In this document: piece after piece, positions 1 to 64,000 of the stretch
How the letters are laid out: each line of letters opens with the position of its first letter
Position numbering within the stretch: the first letter of the stretch is position 1
Source of the DNA: Amphiscolops sp. MND2022
Lineage: Eukaryota
NCBI GenBank assembly: GCA_964187785.1
Contig: OZ076415.1
Location: 1,860,001-1,924,000, forward strand
DNA length: 64,000 nucleotides
Direction: 5' to 3'
Made by a program: the position numbers and the translations under genes
The notes under the pieces: generated by a model
Database searches by the model: none
The model's input: only the letters and a program-made list of their open reading frames with translations
Told to the model about the DNA's origin: nothing

Positions 1-2702
1 GCACTGGGTCTGACAAGGCCTTCCACTGCATGCTCTGTCAGCGTGACGTGTCCATGGAATCTCGGGGGGCAGCTGAGTTCTCCCGGCATTTCTTTGGCAA
101 GCGACACTGGCAGCTCGATGTGGCTTATCGGGTTCGAAATAATATGCCTATTTACAATAGGTTGATGGATCCAATGGTACCCACTGAAAGTCAACTGTCA
201 GAGTATCTTGAGTGGCCTTCAAAAGGCAAGAGTGAGGGATTTAGCTTCCCTGAGGATTTGCTACCTGCCTGCACCCAGTCCAATTCGAGTGTGCCCTTGA
301 TGACAATGGTTAATTGTCTTGTTGAGCTGCTGCGCTCCGAAGGGAGTTACACGTTGCTACGAAGACTGTGGGGAAGTTTCCGGGCCACCTTGGGTCGCGA
401 CAGCCCTCTTTACAGTTTGAATTGGAGTCAGGCCGAGTCATTGGTCAGTTATAGTTTTGCTATATCTTCTTCTCATTTTCGTTCCCTCTCTCGTTCTTTT
501 AGCGGTTAATGTTATCCGTTTGTGTGCATAGTGTTGGATGATGGTCAGTTTGAGTTGTATTTTAGTCGTTGATTTGTCACGCACTATTTCCACGGGCCTT
601 ACGTTTGCTGATCTCTCGCATCTCAGCTTTCCGAGAATACAGCGTATTCTTTGTGGAAGATGGCACGTCACATACATGTTTCGTACAGACGTGGGACGAC
701 CATAGCCTTATGAGTGTTTGCGTCTGGGTGGAGCCTGTGGGGCAAATCGTTCCGAGGGCAGAGTTGGCAGGATTGTCGCGGATTGTCGACAGCACATCAT
801 CGTGCCAGTTGCCTCTGTCGTGTCATGGAGGCAGTCCCACCCTCATGCGCGTTCTCAGCGAGAATCGGGTTGACAATCGGAGTTTCGTTGTGTACCGCGA
901 GTTCAACGCGGACGTGTTCCTGCATTGTTTCCGACTTGCCTACCAGGAGACGTTCGGAGGGCTGGAGGTGACAACTATGGTGGACTTTGTTGTTCTTCGC
1001 TTGCGGTGTGCTTTGCAGGAATCTTGGTTAGAGGATGCGACTGCGTTACGTCGATGTGTTGCTGCAGGACGCGTTGCCTTCGACGATCTTTGTGGTGTTG
1101 TGCGGGATTTGATCTCTGTTTGGCGCTCCGTGCGGAAGTTTATCAAGGACAGTGCTCCACGACATATCAAAACTGAGGCTGGCAGGGTAAGTTGTTTCAA
1201 TTTTCCTATTTGGGACCTTGTTTAGTTGGGTGGCGTTATGTGGTCATATATCCTTTTGTTGTTTTCGGGTTTTTTTTTCTCTTTTTCCCTCTGCTCGCTT
1301 TTTTTTGAATGGGTTGGTAGTAGACTACGGTATTGTAGTTTTGTGCTATTCAAGGTCTTTTTGATTGTTATAGATGCGAGGTACAGACTGGACTGTATAT
1401 TCTGATTGTGTTGGTGAATTGCGCCTGGGCTTGCTGTTACACATTCTGGAGTTGTATCATTGTTCTTTCAAAAAATATTTGTCCGGACGATCAGATTACT
1501 GCTTTCATTTCTATATGGAAGTATGTCAATTTGTATTCTGCTTGCTGTCCCGCGCCCGAAAGATCGCCACTCTCCCGGAGTTGAATAATTGGGAGGAGTA
1601 TATGGATGAGCAGAGAGTCGATGAGTTTGAAAACGTTGCTGTTTCCGACTTTTTGCGTAACCACTCTTTTGGTGTTGTGTTGCAAGCCCGCAAGGATAGT
1701 GAATGCCGATCCTTTCGTGAACAGTGTATCAAGTTTATGGATCGCCTTTTTGACGCAATTCTTGTGCAGCAGCCTTTGACTGGAGAGTTTTCTTGTGGGC
1801 TCTATTCCTTTTGTCCTGAATTGCTGTTGGAGGGCGACGATTATCGGATGTTGGAACTCTTCCGGAAATTGGTGCGTGTGTTGGAATCGAGTGGAAGCGT
1901 CACAGCGTTGGAGTCAAGGACTGCTGTCGAGGAATATTCGACTTTTGTTGTGGATGCCCGAAAACGTCATCTGGGCAGCAGGAGTAGCGCTGAGGATATA
2001 ACTGATGTTAGGCAGCATTTGTTATCAGATTATAGTTTCCTGTCGCGGAAAGCTCTATGCCGCTTGTTCAAGTTGTGCTGCCTTGTTGTTTTGAAACCCC
2101 TTAATGGCTTCCCTGTCATGGATATTGTGCCTACTCATTGCGAGATGCCGGAGTGGGTGGTATCCTCATGCGTGTGTGGGGTGCAGAGTAGTATTTCTTC
2201 TAGCGATTTTAAATTGAGTACTTTCTTCACCAAGTTCACTATGAATGAAGTTCGGGATTCAATTGACGCTGCTCAGTCATTCATGACACAATCGGACTTC
2301 GACCCGTGGGCAGGGATCTGTGGTGGTGGTCGGGCTGCTTTTGTGAAGCGCTATACCGATTTGTTCAACGCTCGGGTGAATCGCAAAAAGGGCGGAATCT
2401 CCCAGCAAGTTAGTGCAAATGATGAATCCAGTCGGGGTGTGCAGCCTGATGGCGACGATGGCGTTTCTGCTGCTGTTCTTTCTGATAGTGCTGCTTCAGC
2501 GGTGTCTGCGCCTCCTGTATCTACATCAAGTGGTTCAGGTTCATTCAGACAAAGCAAGACTCCAATTCATAGTAGTTTAGCTTCATTACTGGGGCGAAAG
2601 AAAGATGCGTCGAAGAGTAGTGGTCAAGTCGTGAAGAAACCCAAGAGGGATTCGAAGAAATCTGCTTCCAAGTGTGGGGGTTCGAATTCGAAGAAAAATT
2701 GA
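1..2702 (+). CDS. 5'-partial spliced gene, join(<1..443,566..1186,1374..2702): BED-like zinc-finger, hAT-transposase-like protein carried antisense in E1
   Basis: Three ORFs join in frame through GT-AG introns (TTG|gtcagt 444, ttttag|TCG 566, AGG|gtaagt 1187, ttatag|ATG 1374). C-x2-C...H-x5-H motif CMLCQRDVSMESRGAAEFSRHFFGKRH. Aligns by eye with the E2 gene at 58256-62723 (shared W-S-x-E junction, FxP, LFKLCCL). Confidence 0.8.
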
Positions 2703-2952: not shown

Positions 2953-4554
2953 TTAGTGAGTCGTAGTTACAGCGTCGAGTCGTCTGAAGTCAGGATTAGC
3001 ATTAGGTTTAGGATTAGGTCGCAAGTTATATTTTGCTGTTTTTCTTGGGTTATATCCGACGACTGTAGGCGGTGATCTTGGGGGAATAGGTGGACTTTCA
3101 AGGGGTGGGGGGCGGCGTATATATGGGTTATCCCCCGCGTCTGTAGTAAGATTTGAGAAATCCGGGGACGGCGGCGTGTCGTCATTTGTGTCAGCAGTTT
3201 GGTTTCTTGGCATTTGAGACGTCGTGTTTTCGTTATTCGTGGTTGTCACTTCTTGTATTTCTGCGTGTTGGTTATTTCTTGTATCTTTTGATGTTTCGTG
3301 TTCATCAATCTGTTTTCCGAAATCCATTTCCCACGATACCGCATACCACTCGCTGTGTGACACTTTGACGTCTGGATCGGCAAGATATTCGTTTGCTCGT
3401 ACTGTGAGGTCAGGCACGCGTTGTTCTGGCACGTAAGGTCGTATACGAATTCTGTGTAGTGTTTGTGTGTATCGTGTGCCAATTTTTCGTATCGTGTAAT
3501 TGTTATTTGAGAGCACTTTGATTACTATGTACGGTCCCGTCCAGATACAATCTTGAAATGCAAACTTTGTCGATTGATTGTCAGCTTTCGGATTGAGGAT
3601 GTAGCAATAGTCATTTAGTTTGAGCGGAGCCGCCGACGCTTTACGGTCATAATATTTTTTGTATTTGAGGTAAGACAGCATGATGTTGTCTTTCGCTGTC
3701 GCTCGCACTTCGTCAATTTGTTTTTGTAGCTGCTCTGCTATATCTGAATTTGGCGTAGTTTTCCACTTTGGCTTGATGCCTAGTTTTAAATCAAGGACGT
3801 TGTAAGGTATGCGTCCATGGAATACTGTAGATGGTTCGCAGCCTAGGGTTTCGTGATACGTTGTATTATAGTTCATGACTGCGATCTGAACGTATTTGTG
3901 CCACATTGAGCGTCTTTCACCCGTCGATATTTTTAATGCGGTTTTGATTGAGGCGTGTGTTCTTTCTAGGATGCCAATCGTTTGTGCATGCTTTGTGGAT
4001 GCATGGCTAATTCGGATTTCGAGTATTTGCATTATTTCTGCGACGACTTCTGATCTGAATTGTGAGCCTTTATCTGAGAGAATTAAAGTTGGCAGATATG
4101 CATGTCTGGTCATGACGTCGACGATGCATCGTCCGTTTGTTTTTGCAGTGGCATTCTGCGTCGGGTATGCGAATAGGTAACGTGAGAATACATCGATCAT
4201 TGTGACAATGTTCTGGTATCCTGCAGAGTTTGGTAGGTTTGGCAGTATGTCGATTTCGAGTATATCTTCTGGTCCTAATACGTGTTTTGTGTTGTTGATC
4301 ATCTTCGGTCGGATTTGGCTATTGTTGATTCTTTTGTATTTGATGCAATCTTCGCATTGCATTACCCACTGTCTGATTCGTTTTGCTAAGCCAGGGTAGT
4401 AGTACTTTGATCGGCATTCTTGGATCATTTTTGTGATTCCTGGGTGTTTTCCCATTTGTCCATGGATTGCTTTCAGAAGTTCTGTAATCAGGTGTTCGGG
4501 GATTAATATTTGGTTGTGTGTAACTTGACCGCATTCTCCGTAGTATTTGCGCAT
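2953..4554 (-). CDS. pol: E1 integrase (C-terminal part of pol)
   Basis: HGQMGKH...CEDC zinc-binding motif, EIDIL / SDKGSQF / LERT DDE triad, WTGPY (GPY/F) motif, tail YNLRPNPKPN. Confidence 0.95.
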   Translation of the reverse strand: MRKYYGECGQVTHNQILIPEHLITELLKAIHGQMGKHPGITKMIQECRSKYYYPGLAKRIRQWVMQCEDCIKYKRINNSQIRPKMINNTKHVLGPEDILEIDILPNLPNSAGYQNIVTMIDVFSRYLFAYPTQNATAKTNGRCIVDVMTRHAYLPTLILSDKGSQFRSEVVAEIMQILEIRISHASTKHAQTIGILERTHASIKTALKISTGERRSMWHKYVQIAVMNYNTTYHETLGCEPSTVFHGRIPYNVLDLKLGIKPKWKTTPNSDIAEQLQKQIDEVRATAKDNIMLSYLKYKKYYDRKASAAPLKLNDYCYILNPKADNQSTKFAFQDCIWTGPYIVIKVLSNNNYTIRKIGTRYTQTLHRIRIRPYVPEQRVPDLTVRANEYLADPDVKVSHSEWYAVSWEMDFGKQIDEHETSKDTRNNQHAEIQEVTTTNNENTTSQMPRNQTADTNDDTPPSPDFSNLTTDAGDNPYIRRPPPLESPPIPPRSPPTVVGYNPRKTAKYNLRPNPKPNANPDFRRLDAVTTTH

Positions 4555-4787
4555 TAGTACTCCGTCTTTGACAATGAGTCTATTTTCGTGAACTAAGAGG
4601 CGTTTGGCTTTCAGGTCTGTTTGTAAGAGGTGTTTGTCGTATTCTTCACAGATCAGTTTTCTTTTGATTGCTTTGAAAACTAGATCTGAATCTTGTTCAA
4701 CTCTAATGCGTGCATCTTCTTTGATTGCCCCAAAGGTGTATGATGCCTTGTTTATTGGGATTGGGGTTGTTTCTTTTATTGAGAACT

Positions 4788-7154
4788 TTATTTTCGTCGT
4801 CTCCTCGTCTCGTGCGTTTTGTCTTGCTTGTTCTTTTTGTAGGAGGATTTCCTCTTCTGTTTCGATCGTTTCCTCTGGGAGGAAAAAAGTTGTTCTTCAT
4901 CTGCGACGTCTGTCGATTGAAGGTTTACTTGTATTGGTCGGATCGTAATATCGTTTCGGATTTTTAGTTCGACTTTTTCTTTAGGGTTAAGGTCAATTCT
5001 CGATAAGAAATCAGCAGCCGTGTTTTGCGTCCCGGCTACATGCATGATGTGAAAACTGAACTGTAGGACATAGTCACATGCATTCCATAGCGTGGGGGGA
5101 ATCGCTTTTGTTTGGAAGAACCTCGTTACTGATCTGTTGTCTGTCATTACGAGAGTTGGTAGGGTTGTTTCCCACAATATGTGGCTGTATTCTAGGAACG
5201 CGTGGTAGATTGCCAGAAATTCTTTGCAATAGATTGACATCTTCAGTTGTGTTGGTGAAAATACTTTTGATCCAAATGCTACAGGCGCAAAAGTTTTCTT
5301 TTTGGAGTTGAGTTTTTTGTCGTTTTCTTCTTCGATCATTAACGCGTATCCTGAGGCACGAAAGCTAGCATCCGTCATTAGGACGTATTGTCGTCCTGTA
5401 ATTGGTTGTTTGAGGGCTAGTCCACATGCTTCCGCTAATGCTGCGTTGATCGCTTTGTAGTGGTCTAATAGTTCTTCTGTGACTTTGATTTGTTTGTCAG
5501 CTTTCAGTAGTTCGTAGAAACCGAGTAGCTTCTCAGACAACCTCGGGATATAGTTGCGGTAGTAGTTGACAAAGCCTATGTATCTCTGTACTTGTTTCTT
5601 TGATTTCGGGAATCGTACGTTTGCTAAGAATTTCTGGATTTTGTGGTCTTGGGGGGCGATTCCTTGTGGGGTGATCGTTCTTCCAAGGAATTCGACCTTG
5701 GTTACTCCAAAGTGGCATTTGTCAATGGATAGTTTGAGTCCTGCTTGTCTGATGCATTCGAAGACAGCTCGAATGTTCCGTATCAGTTGTGTCACGGAGT
5801 TTGGAGCTATTCCGATGTCATCTACGTATTGCGCGCACTGATCAGCCTTGATTACTTTGTCTAAATATTCTCTCATGAAACTAGAGAATGCTGATAAAGC
5901 TCTACTCAGTCCTTGTGCTAGTCGTTTGTAGGCGAACGTTCTGCTTGCGAAGTTGAACGCTAGCATTTCGATTGATCTCTGGTCTGCCATTTGTAGACAG
6001 TGGTATGCTTGGGAGCAATCTAATTTGCAGAACAGCTTTTTCCCGGCTAAGTGTTGGGCTGCGTCCGACAGGGTACTGACTGGGTGGTTATTGTTGATGT
6101 AATCATCTGAGATTAATGCGTTTATTTTTCGTAGGTCGACGAGTAGTCGCAACTTGCCATTCGGTTTGCGTTGTGCAAAGATTGGGCTTGCATATTTTGA
6201 GAATGGTAGGGTCGTTATTATGCCGTACCTATGCATTAGTGCTAATTCGACTGTTAGATCTTCTTTCAGCTTGATTGGTACCGGCAAGCTTTGTGTGTAA
6301 ATTGGACGCTCGTCTTTCGGAGTTAATTTGACCTTGAAGCTATTGTTGATTCCAATGTCAAGGCGATGGCGGGCAAAGATATCGTTGTATTCGACTATTG
6401 TTTGCTCGAGTTGCTTCCTGTCGTTGCCTTCGATTTGAGAACCTTCCCACTGAAACATGTCGAGGAACTTTTGTCTTGAATCCTGGTCTTTGGTTGGGTC
6501 TAATTCTTCTCTCTGGATTAGTTCACGGATTTCCTTCAGGATCCGTCGTTGGATTGGCGTATGTTCTTCTTCGTTTCCCGGATTCTCAGGTGTGGGAAAC
6601 CAGAAATTTTCCTCACCTTGTTCAGTTTCGTTGGCTTTCATGAGTTCATTGACGTACATGTGGGTGTCATCAGGATCTTCTAGCAATTTGAGTGCGGCGG
6701 CGTCTACTGGTCGTATTTGTTTCGTGTCCTCGGGTTTGAGGATTTGTAGTTCTGCTAGTTTTGTGTGATTCTTTATTGTATGAGGGAAATCCGTTAAGTT
6801 GGCGATTCGGATGTTGAGCCTTTTATTGTGGGCTGTCGCTAGTGCTGGTGCAACAATGATTGTTGCTGCTTCATCAAATTTTGGTAATGGTTGTACCGCA
6901 CCAGTGACGTCATGCATGTTTGTGGTTATTACTATTGCGTTCACTGTTGTTGTTTGTTGGGGCGGTAGGGTTTGATTTCCTTCTGCCATTATTTGGAGCG
7001 GTTTCGGGTTGCATTTTTTCATTTCGTCCGTCATGGCTAGCGTCATTTCGACGTGCGGGAAATTGATGGTACCGTTTGCTGTATCTAGTACCGCCTGGTG
7101 GTTCCTCATGAAATTCAGTCCTATTATTGGGGAGGACGTTTTTGAGAGTATCAC
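4788..7154 (-). CDS. pol: E1 reverse transcriptase + RNase H; frameshifted relative to the flanking PR and IN segments
   Basis: PIFAQRKPNGKLRLLVDLRKIN, KLDCSQAYH, QYVDD, FLGRTI, TDASF, EFLAI, TDNR, NTAADFLSR. Confidence 0.95.
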   Translation of the reverse strand: MILSKTSSPIIGLNFMRNHQAVLDTANGTINFPHVEMTLAMTDEMKKCNPKPLQIMAEGNQTLPPQQTTTVNAIVITTNMHDVTGAVQPLPKFDEAATIIVAPALATAHNKRLNIRIANLTDFPHTIKNHTKLAELQILKPEDTKQIRPVDAAALKLLEDPDDTHMYVNELMKANETEQGEENFWFPTPENPGNEEEHTPIQRRILKEIRELIQREELDPTKDQDSRQKFLDMFQWEGSQIEGNDRKQLEQTIVEYNDIFARHRLDIGINNSFKVKLTPKDERPIYTQSLPVPIKLKEDLTVELALMHRYGIITTLPFSKYASPIFAQRKPNGKLRLLVDLRKINALISDDYINNNHPVSTLSDAAQHLAGKKLFCKLDCSQAYHCLQMADQRSIEMLAFNFASRTFAYKRLAQGLSRALSAFSSFMREYLDKVIKADQCAQYVDDIGIAPNSVTQLIRNIRAVFECIRQAGLKLSIDKCHFGVTKVEFLGRTITPQGIAPQDHKIQKFLANVRFPKSKKQVQRYIGFVNYYRNYIPRLSEKLLGFYELLKADKQIKVTEELLDHYKAINAALAEACGLALKQPITGRQYVLMTDASFRASGYALMIEEENDKKLNSKKKTFAPVAFGSKVFSPTQLKMSIYCKEFLAIYHAFLEYSHILWETTLPTLVMTDNRSVTRFFQTKAIPPTLWNACDYVLQFSFHIMHVAGTQNTAADFLSRIDLNPKEKVELKIRNDITIRPIQVNLQSTDVADEEQLFSSQRKRSKQKRKSSYKKNKQDKTHETRRRRK

Positions 7155-7256
7155 GAAGGTGTCCGTGAATGTATACGTTCCTATGTTGAACTGTATATCG
7201 GCTGTGGCTATCGGTTGCTCCAGTTGAGCATTTGCGCATTCGATTTTGAAAGGAGG

Positions 7257-7868
7257 TTATGGATACTCCTTTATGACACAATTGTCACTGTTCATTTTGA
7301 TTGCATTGTAGTCCGACCAGGACATTGCGTTGATGAACGCACCTGAGTCGACTAGTCCATCCATTGTTATTTCGCCAAATTCAAGTGGTAGGTATAGCAT
7401 CCTTCGCCGTTTTTTGAGTACTATTGTCGAGTGAGGTGGTATGCACCTTTCTCCGTCTTTTTCAGTTACGTATTCTTTGATTGAGTTGAGTGAGACGGGG
7501 AAGTCTTCTAGGGAAAAGGGTTTCTTGGGGGAGTCGTATATGTCCCTCTCTGTTGGCTGTGGCAAAGGCTTGTCATTGGGAGCATTTTCGTTTTGTTTTA
7601 TTTGGGCGGAGGTTGTTTGATCTTTGATGGGATTTGTATGACAGGTATGGTCATCTCTGTAGTCCTGGTCCTGAGTGTAGGTTTTCTTTTCTTCTGGTTG
7701 TGGAATTGGCCTTTTTATGGAAGCGAGAGCTTGTCTTTGCAGCCAATCTACCGTTGGTGTGCCATCACACCCTGTTGTTGAGTCGTTTGTATAGGTGATG
7801 GGGGGATCTGTTGATGAGTACGCCCTCGCGGCTACGGTTTCCCCGAATCGCAGGGGCGGCGTATCTAG
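7257..7868 (-). CDS. pol: E1 pol N-terminus / aspartic protease in the -1 frame after the slippery site
   Basis: The -1 frame is open from 7868 (LDTPPLRFGETV...) into ORF 7257..7565, which contains GLVDSGA. An indel near 7257 breaks the frame before the RT. Confidence 0.8.
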   Translation of the reverse strand, partial: LDTPPLRFGETVAARAYSSTDPPITYTNDSTTGCDGTPTVDWLQRQALASIKRPIPQPEEKKTYTQDQDYRDDHTCHTNPIKDQTTSAQIKQNENAPNDKPLPQPTERDIYDSPKKPFSLEDFPVSLNSIKEYVTEKDGERCIPPHSTIVLKKRRRMLYLPLEFGEITMDGLVDSGAFINAMSWSDYNAIKMNSDNCVIKEYP

Positions 7869-7874
7869 TTTTTT
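7822..7874 (-). promoter_or_regulatory. E1 -1 ribosomal frameshift signal (A AAA AAC plus downstream GC-rich structure)
   Basis: gag ends TCA AAA AAC TAG; heptamer at 7868-7874. CGCCC...GGGCG and CCCC...GGGG pairings start ~6 nt downstream. The -1 frame is open to the protease. Confidence 0.75.
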
Positions 7875-9302
7875 GATTCATCTGCGGCTTGGTTTGTCTG
7901 CTGTTGTGCAGAGTTATCTTGTTTCCTTCCTTGTTGGAAATGTCGTTTAGGTCTCGGGTCGTTTGCCGAGTTAGCTCCGTTCCAACAGTCTTCTGTTTTG
8001 TGGGGTTTTCCACAGGTATCGCATTTGGAGGTGATACCAGTGGTGTTTCTGGTATGGCCATTATGTTTTCTTGTTTGTTGCCATTTGTCTCTCCGCATTT
8101 TGCGGCATTCAGCCTTGAAATGGCCAAATTTATTGCAATAAAAGCAGTACCCTTTTTTAGTGTTTTGGGTAGTGTTTTCAGCTTGTTTGGGCTCAGTCTT
8201 TGTTGGGGCTTGTTCTACTTTATTGAGGGGTACCAGAGTTACATCGTCTGGCGCTCCAAGTCCGTTAAGTCGCATTTCTCTCTCTAGGTGTAGTACAATG
8301 TCATTATAGGGCTTGTCTTCGAGGTACGCCCTATTTAATATTTTCTGCACGTGATCTGGCATTTTCGCGTAGATTGCTTTGTCGATAAATTGTTGAGCTT
8401 GTGAACCGAACGCCTCTTTTGCTGTTTTTTGAAGGACGTCCCAAGAATTCGTGGAGTTTCTGCGTCGAGGGATCGAATTCAAGTGCGTCCCATCCACATC
8501 TGGCTTTTGCCATCGACAAGTAGTCTCCGAAACGACGTTTGAAAACCGCCATAATTTCGTTTAGTGAGTCTTTTTTCGAGTCCTCGATGTTGCGGAACGC
8601 TTGTAGCGCGTCTCCCCTGAGTAAAGAGTGAAAATAGTTAACTTTCTGGATTTCAGTAAGGTGCGGGTACATTTTTATGTTATTCCGGAAAAGGTCTTCG
8701 AATAGCTCAAATTTTTCCGATTTCCCGTCAAAGGTTGGTAGTGATGCCGTTAGGGCTTTTGGCATCGGTATTGTATCGCTGTCGTTCTTTTCTGGTGCGA
8801 ACAGAGTCCTCGCTACTATTGGACGTTCTTTTGACGGTGGTTGGCTTTGGGACCGTGCCTTGGTTCTTTTTGGTTGGTTTGTGGAGTCGGTTAAAACTCC
8901 TGTCACCATGTTACGACATGTGTTGGTGTCGTTTTGAGTAGAATTTATCCTGACTGATTTTGTCGGAGTATAGAAACTCCTAGTTTCGTTTTCTGCCTCT
9001 TCATCGACGTTGTCTCTAGCACTTTCCTTTGTTTCAGGTTTTAGGAGCTTTAACATTTCCTTCTGCGATTCGATGAGGAGGTTCTTAATTTCGGAAGTGA
9101 TTTCCTCCTTTAAAGATGCTCTCAAGCTTTCTAGAAGACTATTTTCGATTCTGGGGGATTTTGGTTTTGAAGGTCCCGCAACCTCAACGTCTTGCTCCGA
9201 AAAACAAGGATTTCCTACTACTGGTGAAACAAAACCTTCACTTACGTTTCTATCGCTCTCCTGTTGATCATTCTTTCTTTTCTGGCTTCTTGTTGTTGAC
9301 AT
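7865..9302 (-). CDS. gag: E1 gag (one frameshift near 8450; ORFs 8331..9377 and 7865..8497). Starts inside the 5' LTR
   Basis: MSTTRSQKRK start; LPTFDGKSEKFELFEDLF capsid-like segment; two zinc knuckles CFYCNKFGHFKAEC and CDTCGKPHKTEDC. Confidence 0.88.
8896..8908 (-). promoter_or_regulatory. E1 primer-binding site (Leu-like)
   Basis: TGGTGACAGGAGT immediately follows ...GTAACA; one mismatch from the Leu-type PBS TGGTGTCAGGAGT. Confidence 0.7.
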
Positions 9303-9580
9303 TTTGATGTAGAAAAGTTTTCTTGAAGAATTGAATTTCCTTTCAGAAGGTTTTCTAGTTAGGCAAGAGTTTAGCAAAATTGAAATTCAACTGAATTTAA
9401 GCAATTGCAAAAGACTGAGTCCCTTAATCATCAAATCCTATCATATTTATACCCTCCCAGCATCATTTGATCACGAACAAAGCCCTAATTTTCCTCGAAC
9501 AATTAGTCATTTCCTGTATTTTCGATGAAAAAATCATTTTGTTCCCAATTTTACGTCGACATTCCGTCAATTTTGAGACA
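8909..9580 (-). repeat. E1 5' LTR, minimal extent (contains TATA box at ~9443-9450 and the first ~130 gag codons)
   Basis: Inner end fixed by CA|PBS. The outer end is only a candidate TGTCTCA at 9580; an alternative TGTCACA lies at 11273. The partner LTR is outside the window. Confidence 0.5.
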
Positions 9581-10424
9581 CGATGTTCTTCGTTTAGTAT
9601 TAGTCATCAAACTTGATCATATCATTTCATCCCGGCGTCCTTTTGCTTCCTCCCAAGCAGGAAGTAGATATTACTTCAGTCTGTCAAACCGGAAATGATT
9701 CCCTGTTTTACTGCTTTGGTTCGCGGGAAATTGACGCTGAGATGACGCTGACGTGAACAACAAATACCTGATTTTGAATTTCCCTTTGATAAAAATGCTA
9801 TGACTAATTCCAAAATAGGAATATTTGAACGATGCTAGGACGATATTTTATGAATTTGGACTCAATCCTTTCCTAGAGATGGGAATGAAAATAATACTTT
9901 GTTAGCAACTTTGTCATGTCGTGTCAAATGCGACAAGATTTATAAAATTAACAGCAACGTTTGTTAAATAACAACACCAACACAACGTAAATAACTGGAC
10001 AGCAACGGATGGACTAATATAGAAAAACATGATCACAATCAAAAGTACAGCGTTCAATGTTGTAGAGTACAAAAATGCAAAATATATGAAAAATACATTT
10101 CTGGTACACAATATGCTTTTAGTTGGAGAGAATAAACTGTGACTTCCTAATTAATCTACTGTGAAATCTTGTAATAAGATGGTTTATGCACGGAAATTCC
10201 CTTATTGTTAAGAATACATGATTGTTACTTAACGTGAGGTTGAAGTTATCCTACATGTGTCAAAACGCATTCTAAATTGGGACCTTAAACCATGGAAAAT
10301 CAACAATACATTCGTTATACAAGTTGCAACAGCCTGCAATTTTCTCTCCTTAGGAAATAACGGCATTTGCGCGATGAAAACTTGACTAAATTCGGCAAAT
10401 TCATTCATTTTATTCAATTTCATA

Positions 10425-10695
10425 AACTTGTCAACGTCATGTTGACGCGTTTTCTTGGTTGAATTTTGAGCTTCAACAACTTGTCAACGTCATGTTGACG
10501 CGTTTTCTTGGCAGAGTAGAGATTTTGACTAGTTTGACGCAATGCTGACGAGTATTTTAGAAATGAGTCTCCCGCTAGCTACCAGAGCAGTGACGTCACA
10601 ATGGCGGTAAATTGGAATGATTTCTACCTATGCTATTAGTATAGGCGGATAATTGGAATGATTTCCTGGTACGCTTATGCGAGGCAGTGACGTCA
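10425..10695. promoter_or_regulatory. Enhancer-like array: 34-bp direct repeat with internal palindrome, plus two TGACGTCA motifs
   Basis: AACTTGTCAACGTCATGTTGACGCGTTTTCTTGG at 10425-10458 and 10478-10511; GCAGTGACGTCA at ~10587 and ~10683; AATTGGAATGATTTC duplicated. Confidence 0.45.
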
Positions 10696-12479
10696 ATTGG
10701 TATGCCTTCAAACTTGTCTGCGTCTTACTGACGACACATATACATGTATTCTTATTTCTTTTGCCGCTTTGTTTACTTAGCGCAGTATTGACGTCCTAAA
10801 CCACTTTAATTTCTGTTCAAAGAGTAATTAAGCTGCCTTTCTAAGAAAAAGGCTTAATCCAGTCGGTGTGCCATCTCAGTGTATTTTCTATTTTAGATCT
10901 GATTAATGTTCTTTTGGGAGATGATTTTGACTACGTTTTCATTTAGATTAGACCATGCTTTCTTTGTTTTAGAATGTAATTCAATTTAGTTTCCAGGTGG
11001 CGAATGTTGCTATTTTGACGTGACAAACACGTCTTACCGGAAATGCGTGAAATCATTTTGGTTCATTTTGTTCTCTGTTTTCATTTCCTGTTGAAGTTTG
11101 CGCGGTTAGATGTATTTTCACGTTTCTAGTCACAGTTTATTTCAAAGATAAAGTTTTAGAGTTACCAGTTAAAATAAGATTTGGGGAATCTCAGATTGCC
11201 TCCGTGTCCTCTCCCGATCTTCAGTCGTCTGCAACCACAAGCCAGACCGGGAGCGGGCTGTGACACAACTTTGACCGCTTTATCCACAGTTTTTGCAAGT
11301 TTTATGCTCAATTAATTCCCGCAAATCTATTGAATTCATGGATGTGTTTCGAATTCAGAAAAGATTAACCGTTTCCGGAATATCATGCTCAAAAAGTAAA
11401 ACGTTCTTTCTCAATTCAGTTTGCGTGAACACTTCAACGTGAAAGTTTGTTGTCGTTATTTCAACGAAAATCTGTCACCTTCAAACTCGGATACAGAACA
11501 TGTTTAGTTTAACTTTGTTACTTCACTCACTACAAATCAATTTGACATCAGTTTCACACTTCAGTCGAATCTCAGCGCCCTTTCTCAGCAATCGTCACAA
11601 ATTCAAAGATATTTTCAATCTCCATTCTGTCTAAAAGCCAATTGAAAATGATTCAAATCGAACTCTCGTCTCGTGTAAACTTATTATGAAACAGCCGATT
11701 GCATTAACATTCTTATCTTTCACGAAGTTTTCAGAGCAAACTGAAGTTTCTTTGGAGATTCTACTGCGAATCGTTGATCGGTTTGATTGAAGCTACAAAC
11801 TCAATGAGATATGATTTATAACCTTTCACTTGTGAAATGGTTCAACATTAAAATGCTAGATGATGGTAAATAACTGATGTATCATGCTTGAAATATATGT
11901 TCTAATTGTATAGAACCCCCCCATCTAAACTTTAGGATATCCATTCGAACATGGGAAAGACCCCTTTAGTAATTCTCATGAACTTTTGCGCACTAGAATG
12001 TATCATTTTTCCTGTAGGTCAGCTACGAATGTTTCCATCATTCTCAAAAGTTTCCCATATTTTCCAAGACATGTCAAAATCAAAAATGTCAGCTCAGTAT
12101 ATAAATCTGTCATCTGAAAGTAATTTACGCGGTTTTTTTGCGTCATCTCTCAAAATTTAGATGACATATTTTTCATGTATGACAGTAGAAAGTTTGGAAC
12201 GTTAAGAAACCGACGTTCAGTTAAACTTTCAATTTCCATCGCTCTGACGTTTCAAATGTGACGTTTTGTTTTACAAAAGTGATTTTTTCTTTCATAAATC
12301 TTGAGAGTTTGTATGTCAGTGGGATTGAAAAATTGACCCATGGACTAACCATAAATTCAATGAAAGTTACGTAATGAAATTAGTACCCCTTAGTCATACA
12401 TTTTCTTCAGAAAGTGTTGTTTCAAACCTTGTTTCCCTACTTACATGTATTGTACCAAGTTAATTTTTCATGATTTTAT

Positions 12480-13200: not shown

Positions 13201-13842
13201 TTGAATTTTTTTAGTTAACTCCAAAGAAGTAGTTTTTCAAACAAGTGAGGTTTTGAAGTGTTCCCCCTAGTTGAGACTGCTTGAGCTTTTTACATGCTGC
13301 TTGCCTGCATGCAGGGTAACTTTTTATAAAACCTAGAAAATTCAGTAAGCATCCTGCGGTAAATCTTGTAGAATTACACTGCATTCTCTACTACTGCAAT
13401 TAAAATTGAAAAAAGTTCCCTTTCTTTAGTATTCACAAATTAATTTCTCAGCTACTCATCTAAGTTGATCTCCGCTTCTCAAATAGGACGCTGAAGATGA
13501 CGCTAGTTTGTTGTTTACATTGTGAACAAAGTTAATTTGCATTAAAATGGAGGAAAAAGTTTTGACGTTCCAGATGCTTTGATGATTATTTAAAGCAGCT
13601 TGATAAAAGTCGATGAGAACAGGGAAAAATTAACGCATTAAAGTTTCCGCAAGAGATTAAGAAAATCATTGAAAAAGTTGCTGGCATATAAAACGTTCAA
13701 GCAAGTTCAACAAAACAAAGTAAAGTTTATTTCAAAAGGTAGTAAGTCCAAATATCTTTTCACAATGAATTGTTTGAAGCAAGTTTTGTCTGTATTCTAA
13801 TTTTAGAAGTCTAATTTTAGAAAAGTTAGTCTACTGAATTTT

Positions 13843-14198: not shown

Positions 14199-14400
14199 TT
14201 TAAGACGATTTGAGTTGCAAACATGAGAATGAACGACTAAAAACATTGCCATTGAAGTGATGTTAGTCAAAATAGCTTCAACCAAGAAAAACTTTTCGCC
14301 CTTACTGAATTTCTAACTAGTCAATATATTCAATTATAGCTGAATTCCCGGGTGCAATAATGGTATGAAACTATTATTTCATTAATTAATCCATTGATTT

Positions 14401-23753: not shown

Positions 23754-23787
23754 TATTTGTTGTAATCGCCCCTCGATTACTTTTCTC

Positions 23788-54806: not shown

Positions 54807-55398
54807 TGTCGTAAGCACGAGTATCTGAGGATGTGAATCCGTCCCTCTCACGATTACCTAGTGTCTTACTCTTCAAATTGTTTCTAGAGTCTGAATTACG
54901 CAGAACTTCAGGATATCCTTCCGGTCTCTCAGACGGAACGTTCCATCTCTCTCTGGTCATATGTCCGGACTCGGCCATAAGGGCATTTTGAATCTGAGGA
55001 AGAACTTGATTACTAATTGCCTCACTTATAGCTCTTTGAATCTGCACACTGACGCTGTTCATCATCTCATCCATCTCCCGAGATATACGGGAATTCAACT
55101 CACTCGACAATCTGTTGATCTCGGCGTTAGAACTACCTCTAGCTGAGTTCTGGCCTAGTTCGGCATGTGGACTAGGTCCATCGTTCTCAGAGTTAGATAA
55201 CCTATTTCCACCCTCATTTCCAAATTCGTCGCTAAACGGACTACCAGGTCTTCTGGCCTGGTTGCTATTTAGACTCTCACTTCTTTCATTTCTATTATAA
55301 TGGTTTCCTCCAAGCATTATGTCTAAATTCTCAATATCTGACAACATTTCTGCCTCTCTTGATTTTCTCGCTTTCTTTTGTTTCCTTGTGGTAGGCAT
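54807..55398 (-). CDS. LTR-encoded gag N-terminus of E2 (MPTTRKQKK...); truncated by the LTR end, with a stop in flanking DNA
   Basis: Start resembles E1 MSTTRSQKRK; TATATATAG at ~55525-55533 upstream; ORF leaves the LTR at GAC A|CT TAA. Confidence 0.7.
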
Positions 55399-55616
55399 CG
55401 AAACTAAACCGGGTTGAACAATTCAATTATTAAAACCGGAAAACTGACAAACGTCGTTGTAAAAAATCAATCTTTATCAAAGCAAGGTTATGGAAAAAAG
55501 TGTCTCCCTTTGCAGGAAAGTGACTATATATACTCCTGAAAGATGACACTTGCATTCCACGGATTCTTTGATCAAGATAATATCATGTGGTTATGTCCTC
55601 AACAGGTCATGTGACA
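54807..55616 (-). repeat. E2 3' LTR, minimal extent (may be longer)
   Basis: TGTCACATG...TTACGACA candidate ends; internal TATA box. No PPT was found next to 55616, so the inner boundary is uncertain. Confidence 0.5.
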
Positions 55617-56564
55617 AATACCATTACTGCACCGGGTATTAATACTTCAAAGCAACTATTTTGGGGTGATGTCCCGATTGGGAAAATTCCTAACATTTTA
55701 CAATCACAACTATTCATTCATCAAAAGCGGCGTCAAAATATTTACTAGCGCATCAAATGAAATTTCCGTCTATCAAAGGAACTCGTACTCATTATGAATA
55801 TAAATAACATTGCATACATTCCTTTCTGGCACGTGCCACCACGTGACCTAAATTAGCTTTGCAGCAGTGTGAAGCACCTCATGTTATTAGGCCCAATACG
55901 GCCAATTGACATGTTAATGGTTATATGCGTTGATTAACCGATTAGCCCCAAATACATGTACTGCATCACTTTTCAAAGGAACGTAACAATTCCAATGGCC
56001 GGGAATAGCCGGCTAATTAATGGGCAAGTACTAATGAAATATGGCCTTAAGGGCCTAGCAAAAGGTTGGGTATTAAAATGAAGCATCAGTTAAGAACAAA
56101 GATCTGGCTATTATGAAAACACAAACTCAACAAACATGATTTGTTACATGTCAAATTATCACCTTATTTCAATCTTGAACTAATGGGACGGAACCGGCCA
56201 TTTGACCAGTGTACCAAAAGAGAATATTAAAAGCGCGGCAACTGGCCTTACTCGGCCATTAATTAAATAGCATCAACAAACGAGATTGCATACTGCGATA
56301 TGATTGGTTAAGGTAACGTGCTCAAGTGACGCTGCCGGTACGTTGCCGTACGTCACTTGAACTCGTTTCCTATACTGCCTTACAGTCGCTTGTTTCATTG
56401 TATTTTCTATCACTTTAAATTAGCGCCTTACAACTCCATCAACTCGATTGAAATTTCCAATTGTTAGATTTAACAGACTAATTGTATATAAAATGAGCGT
56501 CATCACTGATCATAATGCACAAAATAACAAAATGGCGTGAAAGTTTGATATCAATTGTAAGTTC

Positions 56565-57347
56565 TTAATAAATAGGTAAGGTTCCGGGTACATATTCTTG
56601 ACCAACCGCCGAAGTAGTTACCGTCGTGCCGTCACAGGCGGCAGCCTGCGACACTGCGGGTGTTATGAAAAGGAAGCATCCCGCATTAAGCCCATTCTCG
56701 TATGCCTCTTTCCTCAACTTCGTGATGTGCTCGGGCTCGTTCCTTGGGGTGGATCGTTCCATATACCATCTGACTCTCTCACTCTTGATTGCGTCTACAG
56801 AGCGGCCGCAAACCATACACCCAGTATATTGGGTCTCGCTGACGTTTTGGTAGGGCACCGAGTTCTGCACGTGATAAGACACATGAAAATCACTTACTGC
56901 GGGCTGGACCAGAGGAGTGTCCTGGCTTGGCCCCCTCTCATGGATTGGTGGAGACATCGGTGATTCTAGCACTGGCAGCAGCGTCTTGCAGAGCTCAATT
57001 CGTGATTTCTCCGCTCTTTTTGACGGGGCATAGCACCTTTCGTGATCAAAGTATTTTGTGTCTAACTTGGGAGTCACATCTTGCCCCGGCTGCCTGGTGC
57101 TTGGTCCTGCGACCATTTCTTCCTCCATGCTGCTAGTCGTCATGACACGTCCGGCAATTAGAATGGGGCTGGACACTACCTGCTTCTCCACCCTTCTGAT
57201 CATTTCGTCCGTGTCCGTCGACCAGTCTGAGTCCAAATCAACTGAGGTTTCCTCATCGCTGCTTATGTAAATGACTGAATCGCCTGATGAGTCTGAGTCC
57301 AGTTCAGCCATCTCGAAGAGCTTTCCAGATTTTGCGTATTTATCCAT
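56565..57347 (-). CDS. Uncharacterised 260-aa accessory ORF in the E2 3' region (acidic N-terminus with SIM-like motif, CxxC)
   Basis: Intact ORF from ATG 57347 (track ORF 56565..57395); SVIYISSDEE; CMVC; AG acceptor-like sites just upstream. Confidence 0.7.
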   Translation of the reverse strand: MDKYAKSGKLFEMAELDSDSSGDSVIYISSDEETSVDLDSDWSTDTDEMIRRVEKQVVSSPILIAGRVMTTSSMEEEMVAGPSTRQPGQDVTPKLDTKYFDHERCYAPSKRAEKSRIELCKTLLPVLESPMSPPIHERGPSQDTPLVQPAVSDFHVSYHVQNSVPYQNVSETQYTGCMVCGRSVDAIKSERVRWYMERSTPRNEPEHITKLRKEAYENGLNAGCFLFITPAVSQAAACDGTTVTTSAVGQEYVPGTLPIY

Positions 57348-58255: not shown

Positions 58256-61200
58256 ATGTCGGACCGACAAGGACTTCCCCCGGAAGAGCAAAGACTTCAG
58301 TGCCAAGAGATCGCTAACACAGGTTGGTTTGAGTAATCATATTTTGAACTAATTAACGTGATCAAGGTTAACTTTGTTCATAAACTGCTTCCTGTTTCCA
58401 TCAAAAGACACGTGATAACACGTCTATTTAAAATTTCAAACACTTCCGGAAGATTTCTAAAGCGGTCAAAATGGACTTTTTCCAAGGAAGCACACCGCCA
58501 AATTTCATTTCTTTCTGTTTAGTTGGCCAGAATGAAGATGAGCCACAAACTTCTTCCAACACTGTTCCGGATCTCTCTGTTGCACTAATTCAAGAGGTTA
58601 GCCCGCCTTCTAATGCTGATCCAGTTCGGCCCCCTGTTCCTTCTCCTCCACCTTTTCCGCCATTGGTTCCTACAACTTCCCGGAATCAAACTGGGGAAAT
58701 GACTCCCCTTTATAGTCCCGACAGTAACACAGATGTTACTTCTTATGCCGATGAGATGGTCCAACGGCTAGAGGATGCACATGCTAGGCGCATAGCTGAA
58801 GCAGACGTCACAATCGATACAGCTCTCAATACGGCCCTCAACTCGCAAGTTCCGGAGAGTAATTTGAATCCCCTCCTCCCAAGGTCAAGTACTCCAACTC
58901 TTGATGCTGAAACAGCTGGGCTGTCCGCCAATCTGTCGCAACTCGAGACTGCTCTTGGCGTTGTCATCGGTACACAGTCTGACTTGCCGATTCTTGTTCC
59001 AGTTCCTTTACAAACAGAATTGCGGGAGCGAAGTGATGGGGATAACGCGTCCTCCACTTGTGACTTTCCTGGGCTGCCCAAAGATAACCCAAAGGTCCAC
59101 TTCTTGACCGATGACCCTACTGAGAGTGAGAAGACTGGTGACGACACAAGTCATGTAGAAGAACCAGCCCTCTACAGCTCTGTCCCTTTTGGATCTGAAT
59201 CCGGAACTGAAGCCGGGGATGAGTCAGGACCAGGACATGACACTGTGGGACCTGGTATGCCTTCCAGCTCTCGGGGACCTGATGACCACCTTCCAGAACT
59301 AACCGGTCGAAGCCGAGCCATCTTGAAGACATACTTTGCTGACACCAAGCCATTCAACCTACCGCTAGGACACACCACTGTGGCTTTTACTGAGGCCCAG
59401 ATGTATCATTTGCTACGAGTCCTGAGTGATGAAACTCTTCGAATGTCCTACTCTACCATGGAGAAGATGGTCGTCGATGCCGTCAGAGGTAAACCTACTG
59501 TTGCACCCTCTAAGACGTCCCACTTCCTCATCAGGAACAGAGCACAAACTCCAGGCAGATGGGATCAGAACGACCAGAGCTCTTCAGAAGCTGAGTACGA
59601 CTCGAGCGCAGACTCCAGGGCCTTAACTCCTACCAGTGCAGGAGATACAGGAGATTCTTCCTTCGAAGGGGAATCGGACAGTGCCACTGAAATGGCTTTG
59701 ATTTCAGCTACCTTGGGGGGCGAATCCCAACTTGTTCGATCTTCTCAAGAAAAGGACAGATTTGCTGCCACATGTACCACAGGTGGTGATGAGACCACAG
59801 GCCCCAGTAGTCAGGAAACTACACTTCTAGAGCTCCAACAGCAAGCCCGAGGGACAAAGGCGAAAGGATCTTCTGGGCGCAAACTCTCCACTAAACCAAG
59901 AAAACTTGCCAGTCGAGGGGTCCCAATGCGGGAAGAATTTTTCGCCAAGATCGGGTGGACCCGATCTTTCATCTCTGGACCCGCTGATCCGGTACACAAT
60001 CCACATATGGTCTGGTGCCATATGTGCAAAAAGAACTTTTCAATTCGGTCCAAGGGCGCTTTCGAAATTTTACGCCACCATCGTACAGAGAGACATCTGC
60101 GACGAGACCAACGTTGGAGGTACGAACACCTCAAGAGTGTGGACCCATCCAGTGGGAAGATACGGCATCGAGTCCGAGGTCGGAATGGGAAAGTACTGAC
60201 CGCAATCGAGCTGGCCAAAGAATTGCCGAAGTTCATTCACACTGAACTTGTAGACGTAGGAGAGAGATTTCCCTTCTACGACGATTTCATGCAAGGGCGA
60301 CCTACTGCCTTAGTCACCTCTGAGTCGCGGGCAAAACTACAGCTGTCCATCATAGGAGACTTCCTACAGACCCAAGGCGACTTCTCGCTGCTGAAGAGTC
60401 TGTGGTCGAGAATCAGTGCCCATACCGACTACCAGGCTAACTTGTGCGATTTCGATTGGTCAGAAGAGCGTATTACGGTAGGTTCTTTTCTGTAAGTTGA
60501 CCAATCGCTTTTGCGTTATCGACCAAGTTACTAAATGTATTTGTCCATTTCAGGCCATCTTCCAACACTTCTTTAACTGCGCTATGAACCACGTGGCAGA
60601 ACAGATTACGGCTGAGCAGTGCTTTGCCATAGAGTTCGAGGACAGGGGCCCTAACCGGTACATGACAGCACGATACTGGGAGGGCCAAAATCTTCACCGG
60701 GTCCTCATCTGCAGGAGCCAACTACCAGCTACTGACCTGACCGGGGAACTGGGATCATTGTCCCGACTGTTGTCTGTCGTTTCCACCAAGGCTGACATAG
60801 TGGCGTGCTCCGGAAGCTCTGTCGATCTTCTTCGCACAATTGATTATTCTCCCCTCTTCTCCCGCGCTGTTCAGAGTTGTTTCCGGTTTGACCAATTGGA
60901 TCTACCCAAGATGATGCATAAGACCAGTTACAGTGTCTTTGGCCACATAGATTTTTTCTCAGTCCTACGTGGTCTGGTTATCTCTCTTGGTGGAGCACAT
61001 TCCGAAGACTGGTACCAACGCAGTCCAGAGCTAGCCCAGGTAAATAACGTTCACCTTCCTAGTGTTGTAATCGTGATCAATCAGGTGTTAACTGGGGGGG
61101 GGGAGGAGCGAATTTCCTTAGTTGTTCGAGTTTAAGTTGCGATTTCCTTCCCAGGCCATATCCAGCTGCAAATTGGAGCTCTCCACTTTACCGACCCTTT

Positions 61201-62723
61201 GCCAGGAACTGATCGAGGAGTGGAAGCCGATAACAAGCTACTTGACGACGCACGTGCCAAAGCAACAAGGTCAAGGAGTCCGTACTCGGGTAAGTAACCA
61301 GATCCTTACAGCCTTTAAATATATGCTGATTAGGAGTTGCTTGAGGTATATAGAAGGATGAGTCCCCATTTCCGTTCAGTGTCTATTATACTAATACAGG
61401 GCCTTATTACAGGTGCAAAGTTTTGAGTGGGGGCTAATTTGTGACGAATTTATTCTTGTCAAGCTGGAACTCTTCTGCCGGATCGTCAGTGACTGTTAGT
61501 GTACCTTTATTATCTTTAGACAGGTTTTCTACTCTAAACTGCACCAATTCCTTTCCTTAGATAACACTAGCTTCATTGTCAACACTCATCATAGACGAGA
61601 CGCCTCATTCTTCCTCTGTGGGGAGGTTTCCAAATTCGTCTACCAGCTGTGCTTCAGATGTTTCACTAGCGATTCGGTTCCTTTGCCAAGTGCCTGGTTT
61701 CTCCTCCTGGGATTCCAAGTGGGTGACGGGACCCTCATGACTGCTGGAGAATTCCTTGTCCGGCTCAATATGACTAACAAGGTTGCCTCTGCTTGCAAGC
61801 GAAAAGCCGAAGGGGTCCATTCTGGAAAACGGTCGGATCGGGCCCTGGTCCAAAAAACAGCCGAGACCATCAAGACTGAGTTCGTCCAGGATGCCATGGC
61901 TTATTTAAAGTACCTAATTAGTGAAGTACTGCGACAAGCTGGGCTCAGTTCCAATATCATCAAGGGGCTGGCTGCATTCGACCCTCACATTATGGTCAAA
62001 CGTCCCACGGAAGTGGCGCTCCGGCATTTCGACATCCTTTTTAGTACGTTTCAGCGCCGTTCTTGGATCAGTGCCTCAGTCGAAGCAGCCTGCAGGGATC
62101 AATATGTTGAACTAATTGACTACCTCCGCGCTAAGTACTCTGGTGGGCTCGAAGTTACTGAAGAGGCTAAGGACCTCATAGATTTCCTGATGAACCTTGA
62201 TTTCCTGCAAACACGAGAGCATCTCCTCCACTTATTCAAGTTGTGCTGCCTTTGCATCACTACAGTGGGTCCTGAATTTCCAGTTGTAAAGGTGGGCAGA
62301 GTTGATACTTCCGGACAACGGGGCCGCTTCATTGATGTCGTTCTCCCCATCCAGAGCTATTTGATCGGGGTTCCTGGCTCTGTAGCGAGGTGTGCGAGTG
62401 AGTCTAACCTCACCAATTTCTCCCTTCTTTCTGCCTCTTTTGGGTCATCTGCTTTTTCGCCTACTTATGACCCTTGGGAGACGGTTGATGTCTTTGGGCG
62501 GACGAAGATATACAAGTCGCTTCTATCCTCTTATCGTTCTGCAGTCTCAGAGCCTTCAGTTGGGTCCGCTCAAGTGGAAGCCAATGATACGTCATCGGTC
62601 CTGGATGATGCGGCATTGAAGGTACCCAGTAGCAGTAAACGTAAACGGACTGAGAAGAGAGCTGCTCGATCCCGTTCCTCATCCGTCCTCAGCGAGTCTA
62701 TGTCCAGTTCCTCTAATGTTTAA
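58256..62723 (+). CDS. Complete spliced gene, join(58256..58322,58523..60477,60554..61039,61155..61289,61413..61494,61561..62723), 1295 aa: disordered N-terminus, BED-like zinc finger, hAT-transposase-like body; antisense in E2
   Basis: All five introns are GT-AG with compatible phases; CDS is 3888 nt with no internal stop. Zinc finger CHMCKKNFSIRSKGAFEILRHHRTERH. Spliced product aligns with the E1 gene (VQSFEWGLICDEFILVKLEL vs MRGTDWTVYSDCVGELRLGL; GLAAFDP vs GLYSFCP; LFKLCCL in both). Confidence 0.85.
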
Positions 62724-62952: not shown

Positions 62953-64000
62953 TTAGTATCTGAAGTCTTCTGAGTAGTTCGGATTAGGGTTTGGCCTGAG
63001 ATTATATTTCCCTCCTCTAGGGCTCAGACTTTCATTTCTAGCGTCGTTTTCGGATATTTCGGGCACGATAATATCATCCCCTCTTTTTGGAGAGTTTTGT
63101 GCATCGTTTTCGTTCATTGAATTTCTTTCTGAAAAAGTTTCATCATTTTCCGGTGCATCTGCCGTATTCGGCAAAGAATTTTTTTGGTTTTTCGGGAAAA
63201 CGGCCGGATTCGGCCAGTCAGATTTGTTATTTTCTGTCACTGCAGTAGGTTCTTTTCTTTCAGTGACGTCATCATTTAATCGTTCATCTCGGCTGTGCGA
63301 CGCACGATCGGTAAGATTTGATTCGTCACTCGTGATTACGTAATCCACTTCATTGTCGCTTGCGTCACTTGCGTTCGCTTCTGCCGTACTCGGCTGTTGG
63401 TCATTCGTCAAGCTAGTCGGAATAGGCTCGCTGCCTCGTGTATCTAGCTGTTCGCCAAAGTTTGTTTCCCACGTTATTACATACAAGTCGTCTTGCGGAA
63501 TTATGATTTCGTCATCCGGCTGTAGACGCTGTTCTCGGAAATTGTCCTCAAGTGGCTGATTTGGAACAAACTTTTTGAGACGAATTCGATGCAAGATCTG
63601 CGTTTTATTTGTATTAAGTCTGCGGACAATGTAATTCTCATTAGGTAAGGTTTTCTGGACTATAAATGGTCCAACCCAACGATAATCCCTGAATGGAATT
63701 TTTGATCCTTGATGATCCGCTTTCGGCTGTAATACAAAACAGTAATCGCCCTCTTTGAGTGGGGCGGCTTTTGCTTTTCGGTCGTAATACTCCTTATATT
63801 TGATATATGACTGCATGATGTTCTGCTTTGTTTTGTCAATAAGGAGTTTGGTCCGGTTCTGGATTTCTTCGGCAAATTCAGTAGTCGGATGGATTGGCTC
63901 ATTTGGATTCATTCCAAGTTTGTGATCCAATATGTTGTATGGGATTCTCCCATGGAACACTCTTGTGGGTTCGCATCCGATACTGGCATGATAACTAGTG
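62953..64000 (-). CDS. pol: E2 integrase C-terminal part (5' end beyond the window)
   Basis: FHGRIPYNILD, YYDRKAKAAPL, WVGPF (GPY/F), YNLRPNPNPN; homologous to E1 IN. Confidence 0.93.
   Translation of the reverse strand, partial: TSYHASIGCEPTRVFHGRIPYNILDHKLGMNPNEPIHPTTEFAEEIQNRTKLLIDKTKQNIMQSYIKYKEYYDRKAKAAPLKEGDYCFVLQPKADHQGSKIPFRDYRWVGPFIVQKTLPNENYIVRRLNTNKTQILHRIRLKKFVPNQPLEDNFREQRLQPDDEIIIPQDDLYVITWETNFGEQLDTRGSEPIPTSLTNDQQPSTAEANASDASDNEVDYVITSDESNLTDRASHSRDERLNDDVTERKEPTAVTENNKSDWPNPAVFPKNQKNSLPNTADAPENDETFSERNSMNENDAQNSPKRGDDIIVPEISENDARNESLSPRGGKYNLRPNPNPNYSEDFRY

Follow-up and report, generated by a model that had tools for sequence, protein, structure and literature searches.

We analyzed a stretch of 64,000 nucleotides (nt) of the Amphiscolops sp. 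MND2022 genome (contig OZ076415.1, positions 1,860,001 to 1,924,000; hereafter the window), at whose edges lie two Gypsy long terminal repeat (LTR) retrotransposons, E1 and E2. Both carry, antisense to gag and pol, an intron-containing gene, the cargo, that by its predicted fold derives from a hAT transposase and has likely lost the catalytic acids. We read the cargo as a captured, catalytically dead transposase that is kept as a putative nuclear DNA-binding accessory factor, i.e., for activation or anti-silencing, and whose introns are shielded by their antisense orientation. To this reading as a whole we assign a probability of about one half. Loci with L-numbers were fetched from the same 1.07-Gb genome. 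The cargo exons and core introns (A to D) of both elements are given below; in E2, the four introns were placed by a spliced aligner. ORF stands for open reading frame.

1..443 (in-frame join from 3-443), plus strand: E1 cargo exon with a C2H2 zinc finger and a helical, DNA-binding-like region
444..565, 122 nt, plus strand: E1 intron A, phase 0, GT-AG
566..1186, plus strand: E1 cargo exon with the RNase H-like core and the first part of the insertion domain (domain names from the model of the relative P0284)
1187..1373, 187 nt, plus strand: E1 intron C, phase 0, GT-AG
1374..2702, plus strand: last E1 cargo exon, insertion domain, C-terminal region and basic low-complexity tail
58471..60477, plus strand: long E2 cargo exon, low-complexity leader and zinc finger; start position tentative
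60478-60553, plus strand: E2 intron A
60554..61039, plus strand: E2 cargo exon between introns A and B
61040-61154, plus strand: E2 intron B
61155..61289, plus strand: E2 cargo exon flanked by introns B and C
61290-61412, plus strand: E2 intron C
61413..61494, 82 nt, plus strand: E2 cargo exon flanked by introns C and D
61495-61560, plus strand: E2 intron D, phase 1
61561..62723, plus strand: last E2 cargo exon

Splicing of the cargo is predicted from sequence. A look-up for RNA containing the E2 cargo listed none, which has no bearing on whether it is expressed. We used a custom spliced profile aligner with a profile built solely from the clade whose core frame is unbroken, i.e., blind to earlier junctions. 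For E1 it recovered both introns exactly. For E2 it did so with the first two, and with all four after clade-specific iteration. The original prediction had E1 exons <1-443, 566-1186 and 1374-2702 splicing in frame and two additional introns in E2 (61040-61154 and 61495-61560), and both statements hold, with two phase-0 GT-AG introns in E1 on which the blind aligner agrees. The E1 and E2 proteins, described there as highly diverged, indeed share only 19.5% identity over 678 columns; two exon pairs are matched by BLASTP (E 4e-10 and 4e-7), and the clade profiles match each other at E 6e-46. Introns C (after TEAGR/GVRTR) and D occupy the same alignment column and phase in both clades. Intron A has an equal distance from a conserved Trp in both clades, but MAFFT aligns the two sites with an offset of one codon, owing to a one-codon indel next to them, so that the claim of two positions matching "exactly" is right for the TEAGR/GVRTR intron and slightly too strong for the one at the W motif. 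Intron B was seen in the clade of E2 only, and intron D is precisely absent from the last exon of E1, where its site lies ~27 codons in. Both proteins end in basic tails. Both frames had furthermore been called intact, which is true within the window and doubtful for E1 left of position 1. Extending the sequence in this direction, as had been proposed, revealed that the first exon continues to an acceptor ~143 nt before position 1, with predicted leader exons to about -1257. One E1 leader exon carries a one-base indel compared with the sisters L035 and L036, and no open frame could be assembled from the leader exons of E1 or of its three sisters.

The hAT transposase origin was missing from the original prediction and is suggested here by the predicted fold. 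Pfam gave no family above cut-off, and no match to TRP28 (PF04195), in the E1 and E2 cargo exons scanned (all except the 82-nt E2 exon) or in 13 relatives. A profile search against sequences of solved structures returned a chance match only, and a model of the last exon alone found no Foldseek match at E≤0.001. With the full-length model of the relative P0284 (predicted local distance difference test, pLDDT, 73.8), the only Foldseek matches at E≤0.001 were to the Hermes hAT transposase, the best at 1.7e-5. VIA-align superimposed model and Hermes with Z 13.6 and a root-mean-square deviation of 5.3 over 390 aligned residues, the next non-Hermes structure having Z 6.0. The predicted P0284 model thus shows the RNase H-like core with large helical insertion domain of the Hermes fold (PDB 4d1q, 8edg; model residues 170-698 versus Hermes 116-609), together with an N-terminal C2H2 finger that may correspond to that of Hermes. 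It differs from Hermes in sequence, with an identity of only ~10%, in showing no conserved acid where the catalytic residues are inferred to lie, and in having a long low-complexity leader and a retroelement as its carrier. ESM Atlas leads for the cargo were hAT-type families at 0.81-0.84, i.e., below 0.9 and of lead value only. A search for longer cargo relatives with a diverse alignment yielded none, which is weak evidence.

Hermes requires D180, D248 and E572 according to PMC6027215 and PMC2533014, and the former gives D180, D248, R318, W319 and E572 as its key residues. Of 82 cargo loci, 46 yield break-free full-length cores. In these 46, core strands 1 and 4 both lack a conserved Asp and the last helix is followed by no conserved Glu, so that no D, D, E triad is seen in the inferred register. 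The zinc ligands are kept in at least 95% of them. The finger, C-x2-C..H-x5-H, is conserved and has no Pfam zf-BED match in the exons scanned or in the 13 relatives. On this model, loss of the catalytic acids is likely.

To place the cargo in its family, we searched the genome with cargo queries, of which six out of seven gave matches, each at least 53 to 135. P0247, a distant relative from the protein collection, found no match in this genome at E≤1e-45; some of that collection's distant relatives sit on short contigs and could stem from other organisms. From the matches, 80 loci were hand-picked across subfamilies, stop-free ones being favoured. Integrase lies antisense and directly downstream of the cargo in 79 of these 80 loci, and reverse transcriptase (RT) was found in 77. 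Both element ends were fetched for 40 loci in addition to E1 and E2 (n=42). An LTR pair was present in 40 of the 42, and 34, E1 and E2 included, have TG..CA ends with a 5-bp target duplication. Nearly all bounded elements (32/34) measure 15.6-16.6 kb, LTR pairs are 96.8-100% identical, and the same primer-binding-site-like 12-mer, with TGG at its start, stands beside the 5' LTR in 33 of the 34 elements listed. In order, the elements consist of 5' LTR, gag, pol, antisense cargo, a short ORF in sense orientation (ORF-X) and 3' LTR, with gag-pol on the minus strand in the window, and the pol domain order RT, RNase H, integrase is that of Gypsy (Pfam on E1 ORFs; unbroken pol frame in E2). Position and orientation of the cargo are fixed, i.e., antisense between integrase and 3' LTR of ~16-kb Gypsy elements. 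This is the placement characteristic of Retand-type antisense ORFs; as the loci were drawn by cargo query, a statement on "most copies" reaches beyond this sample.

The 46 break-free cores comprise 28 cargo types below 88% identity in three clades, namely clade 1 with E1, clade 2 with E2, and clade 0. In the listed between-family pairs, the ratio of nonsynonymous to synonymous substitution rates (dN/dS) of the cargo was 0.03-0.11 at unsaturated dS of 0.26-2.18. Three near-identical pairs had ratios of 0.30-0.77, as expected from decay after insertion. The ratios support purifying selection on the cargo. Trees were built on 55 of the 82 loci, the others having been dropped for breaks or truncation. 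The cargo, RT and integrase trees all recovered each of the three deep clades, with support values of 0.999 or more. Inside the clades, RT contradicted 20 of the 36 cargo splits that had support, and integrase 17 of them; RT and integrase also disagreed with each other in 11 of 32 splits, and recombination is therefore general. In approximately unbiased (AU) tests on clade-1 RT, two of three cargo-tree groups were rejected (p-AU 2.9e-5 and 9e-45), the third reaching 0.076.

Pairwise identity profiles located the exchanged segment. In the pairs E2/L083, L099/L104, L049/L053 and L064/L070, ORF-X, gag and pol are mostly >90% identical and a cargo block of ~4.5 kb is 40-70% identical, with LTR bins varying more (down to 41% in L099/L104). 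For L049 and L053, 500-nt bins gave 82-100% outside the cassette and 43-65% inside. E2 and L083 share 68% of cargo amino acids (aa) at a proportion of synonymous differences (pS) of 0.80, with an RT pS of 0.05; for L098 and L104 the cargo is 65% identical and RT pS 0.04. The profile of E1 and L035 is reversed, i.e., backbones are diverged and cargos alike (cargo pS 0.01, RT pS 0.56). In L092/L095 and E1/L056 the diverged block reaches into the LTR. The cargo swaps as a ~4.5-kb cassette between near-identical backbones within clades, and hence simple vertical inheritance is wrong. Of the vertical inheritance originally proposed, the agreement of the deep clades remains, but within clades it gives way to cassette movement; the suggested congruence test accordingly found incongruence, but from recombination and not from independent insertions. 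Random placement relative to integrase, named beforehand as a sign of such insertions, was not seen, and the low between-family dN/dS together with this fixed place agrees with the view that the cargo is old and under selection. E1, introduced as an independent second copy, is a separate insertion but not an independent capture: the two elements inserted separately and belong to related families.

Core introns were counted only in copies that span the core. In clade 1, intron A was found in 41 of 44 copies, C in all 44 and D in 32; in clade 2, A and B each in 23 of 25 and C and D in 25 of 25; in clade 0, core introns occurred in none of 11 copies. A, C and D stand at shared positions across two clades of ~20% identity. 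As had been anticipated, the intron set has changed inside the retroelement. The 12 clade-1 copies lacking D, E1 included, have no indel at the site, and mapping introns on the tree placed the 8 of them that it contains in one nested group; we therefore conclude on a single precise loss of D. An RT tree with two distant outgroups joined clades 1 and 0 (97/100), so that clade 0 would have lost A, C and D. Leader introns, predicted de novo and less certain, numbered three or four in six of seven clade 0 copies and three in five of eight clade 1 copies, with none in the four clade 2 copies examined. Intron B and the leader introns carry no gain or loss polarity here. A precise, 3'-biased loss would be consistent with RT copying of spliced mRNA.

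We propose that an ancestral element acquired a hAT transposase gene once, and that this gene lost its catalytic residues but kept zinc finger and scaffold. The cargo would be transcribed from an internal promoter between cargo and ORF-X. Since its introns are antisense in genomic RNA, they would not be spliced out and would survive reverse transcription; out of the spliceosome's reach, they would allow a conventional spliced gene with its own promoter to ride in a retroelement. Rarely, RT may copy the spliced mRNA of the cargo, whose polarity suits it as a template for plus-strand DNA and which would be met 3' end first, resulting in precise intron deletion preferentially in the 3' part. Template switching in conserved flanks would exchange entire cassettes, which may be too diverged for internal recombination. 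In the least supported step, the protein would bind clade-shared sites, in the LTR or the internal promoter, and serve as activator or anti-silencing factor, which would keep the element transcribed. A nuclear DNA-binding helper is suggested by the retention of finger and scaffold, the basic tail and the strong constraint. A more far-reaching version, i.e., a retroelement-domesticated spliced transposase whose dozens of exchangeable versions serve as a counter-silencing module and whose introns are edited by the element's own RT, is tentative, and we would rather bet against it.

Several points weigh against the accessory-factor reading. DNA binding, nuclear location and an effect on transcription are putative only for the cargo protein. 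The LTR does not follow the cargo type (L049/L053), which disfavours a tight, type-specific co-evolution of protein and LTR sites. Loss of the core introns in clade 0 is weakly indicated, as the root comes from two very distant outgroups, one of them of odd composition. The register of catalytic positions was taken from secondary structure of the model and from hAT motifs, and "catalytically dead" is hence likely and not demonstrated; moreover, the first inferred catalytic position holds a conserved Glu in clade 2. Finally, as the loci were found by cargo queries and hand-picked, cargo-free relatives and free-standing donors are invisible.

With the same origin, the protein might act at a stage following reverse transcription and bring the integration complex to chromatin, either as a tether or as a nuclear-import factor. 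A scaffold of transposase type lends itself to binding DNA ends and targets, the basic C-terminal tails of E1 and E2 would fit this role as well, and co-variation of cargo and LTR would not be required. However, integrase is 94-97% identical among most clade-1 elements whose cargos are 52-83% identical to that of E1, the 34 target duplications have no motif, and insertion flanks are no nearer to the small repeat family of the window than farther DNA (6/67 versus 6/66). We consider this role unlikely. Equally improbable to us is a decoy or dominant-negative protein that binds host transposase-derived repressors or rival hAT transposases, its types being kept by frequency-dependent conflict. It would account for 28 cargo types among 46 break-free copies on near-identical backbones and for the retention of the entire scaffold beyond the finger, but dN/dS is low with no sign of positive selection, suppressed recombination in the diverged block accounts for cassettes without conflict, and the host partner is hypothetical.

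That the cargo is still an enzyme with a shifted active site, or one rebuilt from other residues, is very doubtful: some acidic columns are conserved across clades, e.g., an invariant Asp at alignment column 489, but the conserved acids lie in finger, linker and insertion regions, off the core strands. A neutral passenger, or repeated independent hAT insertions into Gypsy elements, could explain the conflict between cargo and RT trees within clades, but is largely refuted by the fixed position and orientation, the common intron positions, dN/dS far below 1 between families and the identical three deep clades in all trees.

The remaining parts of E1 and E2 within the window are as follows.

2953..7877, minus strand: E1 pol (RT, RNase H, integrase), several ORFs with Pfam matches
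7865..9386, minus strand: E1 gag (zinc knuckle, DUF1759), two ORFs; start within the 5' LTR
8897..8908, minus strand: E1 primer-binding-site-like 12-mer, inside gag and common to all three clades
8909..11265, minus strand: E1 5' LTR, 5-bp target duplication at 11266-11270
54807..56653, minus strand: E2 3' LTR, 5-bp target duplication
56565..57347, minus strand: E2 ORF-X (260 aa), oriented like gag-pol, divergent from the cargo
62953..64000, minus strand: 3' end of E2 pol, an unbroken 1738-aa frame to 68169 in window numbering (L033)

E1 is 15,860 nt long, with its far end at L031:5406, and is decaying: gag-pol is split into several ORFs (two breaks in pol), the outer end is aberrant and one leader exon has the one-base indel described above. 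The outer 3' end (L031:5406-5475) does not stop at the normal LTR boundary but continues through the primer site, and its last 19 nt are an inverted copy of the opposite terminus of the element; a 5-bp target duplication is nonetheless present. Such an end was seen in 1 of 34 bounded elements. E2 is a 16,327-nt LTR element with a 5-bp target duplication. Its LTRs differ by 1 mismatch in 1847 nt (5' LTR, L033:5287-7133), and because of this and the unbroken 1738-aa pol frame we regard E2 as young. Gag starts several hundred bases within the 5' LTR, which puts LTR end and primer site inside coding sequence (8334-9386, minus strand; 68160-69902, L033). Clade-1 LTRs (e.g., window 8909-11265) contain 7-8 half sites resembling the cAMP response element per 2.3-2.5 kb, compared with 6 per 9.7 kb of nearby DNA and 0-2 in LTRs of the other clades. 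ORF-X is acidic, 136-354 aa long, extends into the 3' LTR and was found in all 34 bounded elements (E1: L031:7586-8281, minus strand). In clades 1 and 2 it has a hydrophobic-then-acidic stretch that we take to resemble a SUMO-interacting motif, clade 2 additionally having a CxxC; ESM Atlas gave weak leads only. L109 (G000:C1:52729057-52739056) holds two cargo copies ~3.9 kb apart on the same strand, which suggests internal duplication or a nested element.

Between E1 and E2, three other LTR elements without cargo lie at 21134-27180 (on to about 29600), 35158-40066 and 43712-49611, the first followed by an apparent partial tandem repeat. Neither window 11301-54700, which includes these three, nor the element in L032 gave a cargo match. 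A dispersed repeat of ~500 nt occurs in both orientations at 13839-14199, 16733-17242, 18746-19385, 42229-42713, 50332-50806 and 54360-54804; E2 is inserted at the edge of one copy.

Host-domesticated hAT proteins (ZBED, FAM200, GTF2IRD2-like; names from the Atlas leads) presumably share with the cargo a transposase scaffold under purifying selection and a likely role as DNA-binding regulator. Unlike in these, the domesticator here would be a high-copy retrotransposon with many exchangeable types. The plant elements Retand, Grande and RIRE2 have antisense additional ORFs in the stretch from pol to the 3' LTR, and that of Grande is transcribed from its own upstream promoter (PMC11963269, PMC7264820). 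The elements described here resemble them as Gypsy elements with a long pol-to-3' LTR region, a conserved antisense gene and a proposed nuclear DNA-binding regulatory role. In contrast to the plant ORFs, the cargo has no TRP28 match, and the word "intron" is absent from the main texts of both papers. The 2020 review PMC7264820 gives the origin of most such ORFs as unknown and, as they lack similarity to other transposable elements, an origin from nested elements as unsupported; the predicted cargo fold, in contrast, points to a hAT transposase. Extra ORFs of animal Gypsy elements, i.e., planarian Burro, bdelloid ORF3s and Drosophila env and sORF2 (PMC6431247, PMC5408684, PMC13486581), are likewise stable accessory genes, none of them described as antisense, intron-bearing or transposase-derived in the available parts of these papers. 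VANC, the anti-silencing proteins of MuDR elements (PMC13547354), and HBZ of human T-cell leukaemia virus type 1 (HTLV-1), an antisense-encoded nuclear accessory regulator (PMC11963269), are comparable by analogy of role only, as element-encoded accessory regulators. We found no description of a spliced, hAT-derived antisense cargo in the open literature, with subscription journals, Repbase and Dfam outside the scope of the search.

For the antisense extra genes of LTR retrotransposons, both origin and function have been stated as open (PMC7264820). Here, one such gene is traced by its predicted fold to a hAT transposase, i.e., one transposon class would have domesticated another. Because the lineage is young, as seen from its LTR identities, and large, a single genome contains side by side copies that have 0, 2, 3 or 4 core introns and cassettes that were swapped, which makes RT-mediated intron loss and the accessory-protein role directly testable. 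If the cargo is indeed a module domesticated by the retroelement, the family would represent a replicated natural experiment in RT-mediated intron loss.
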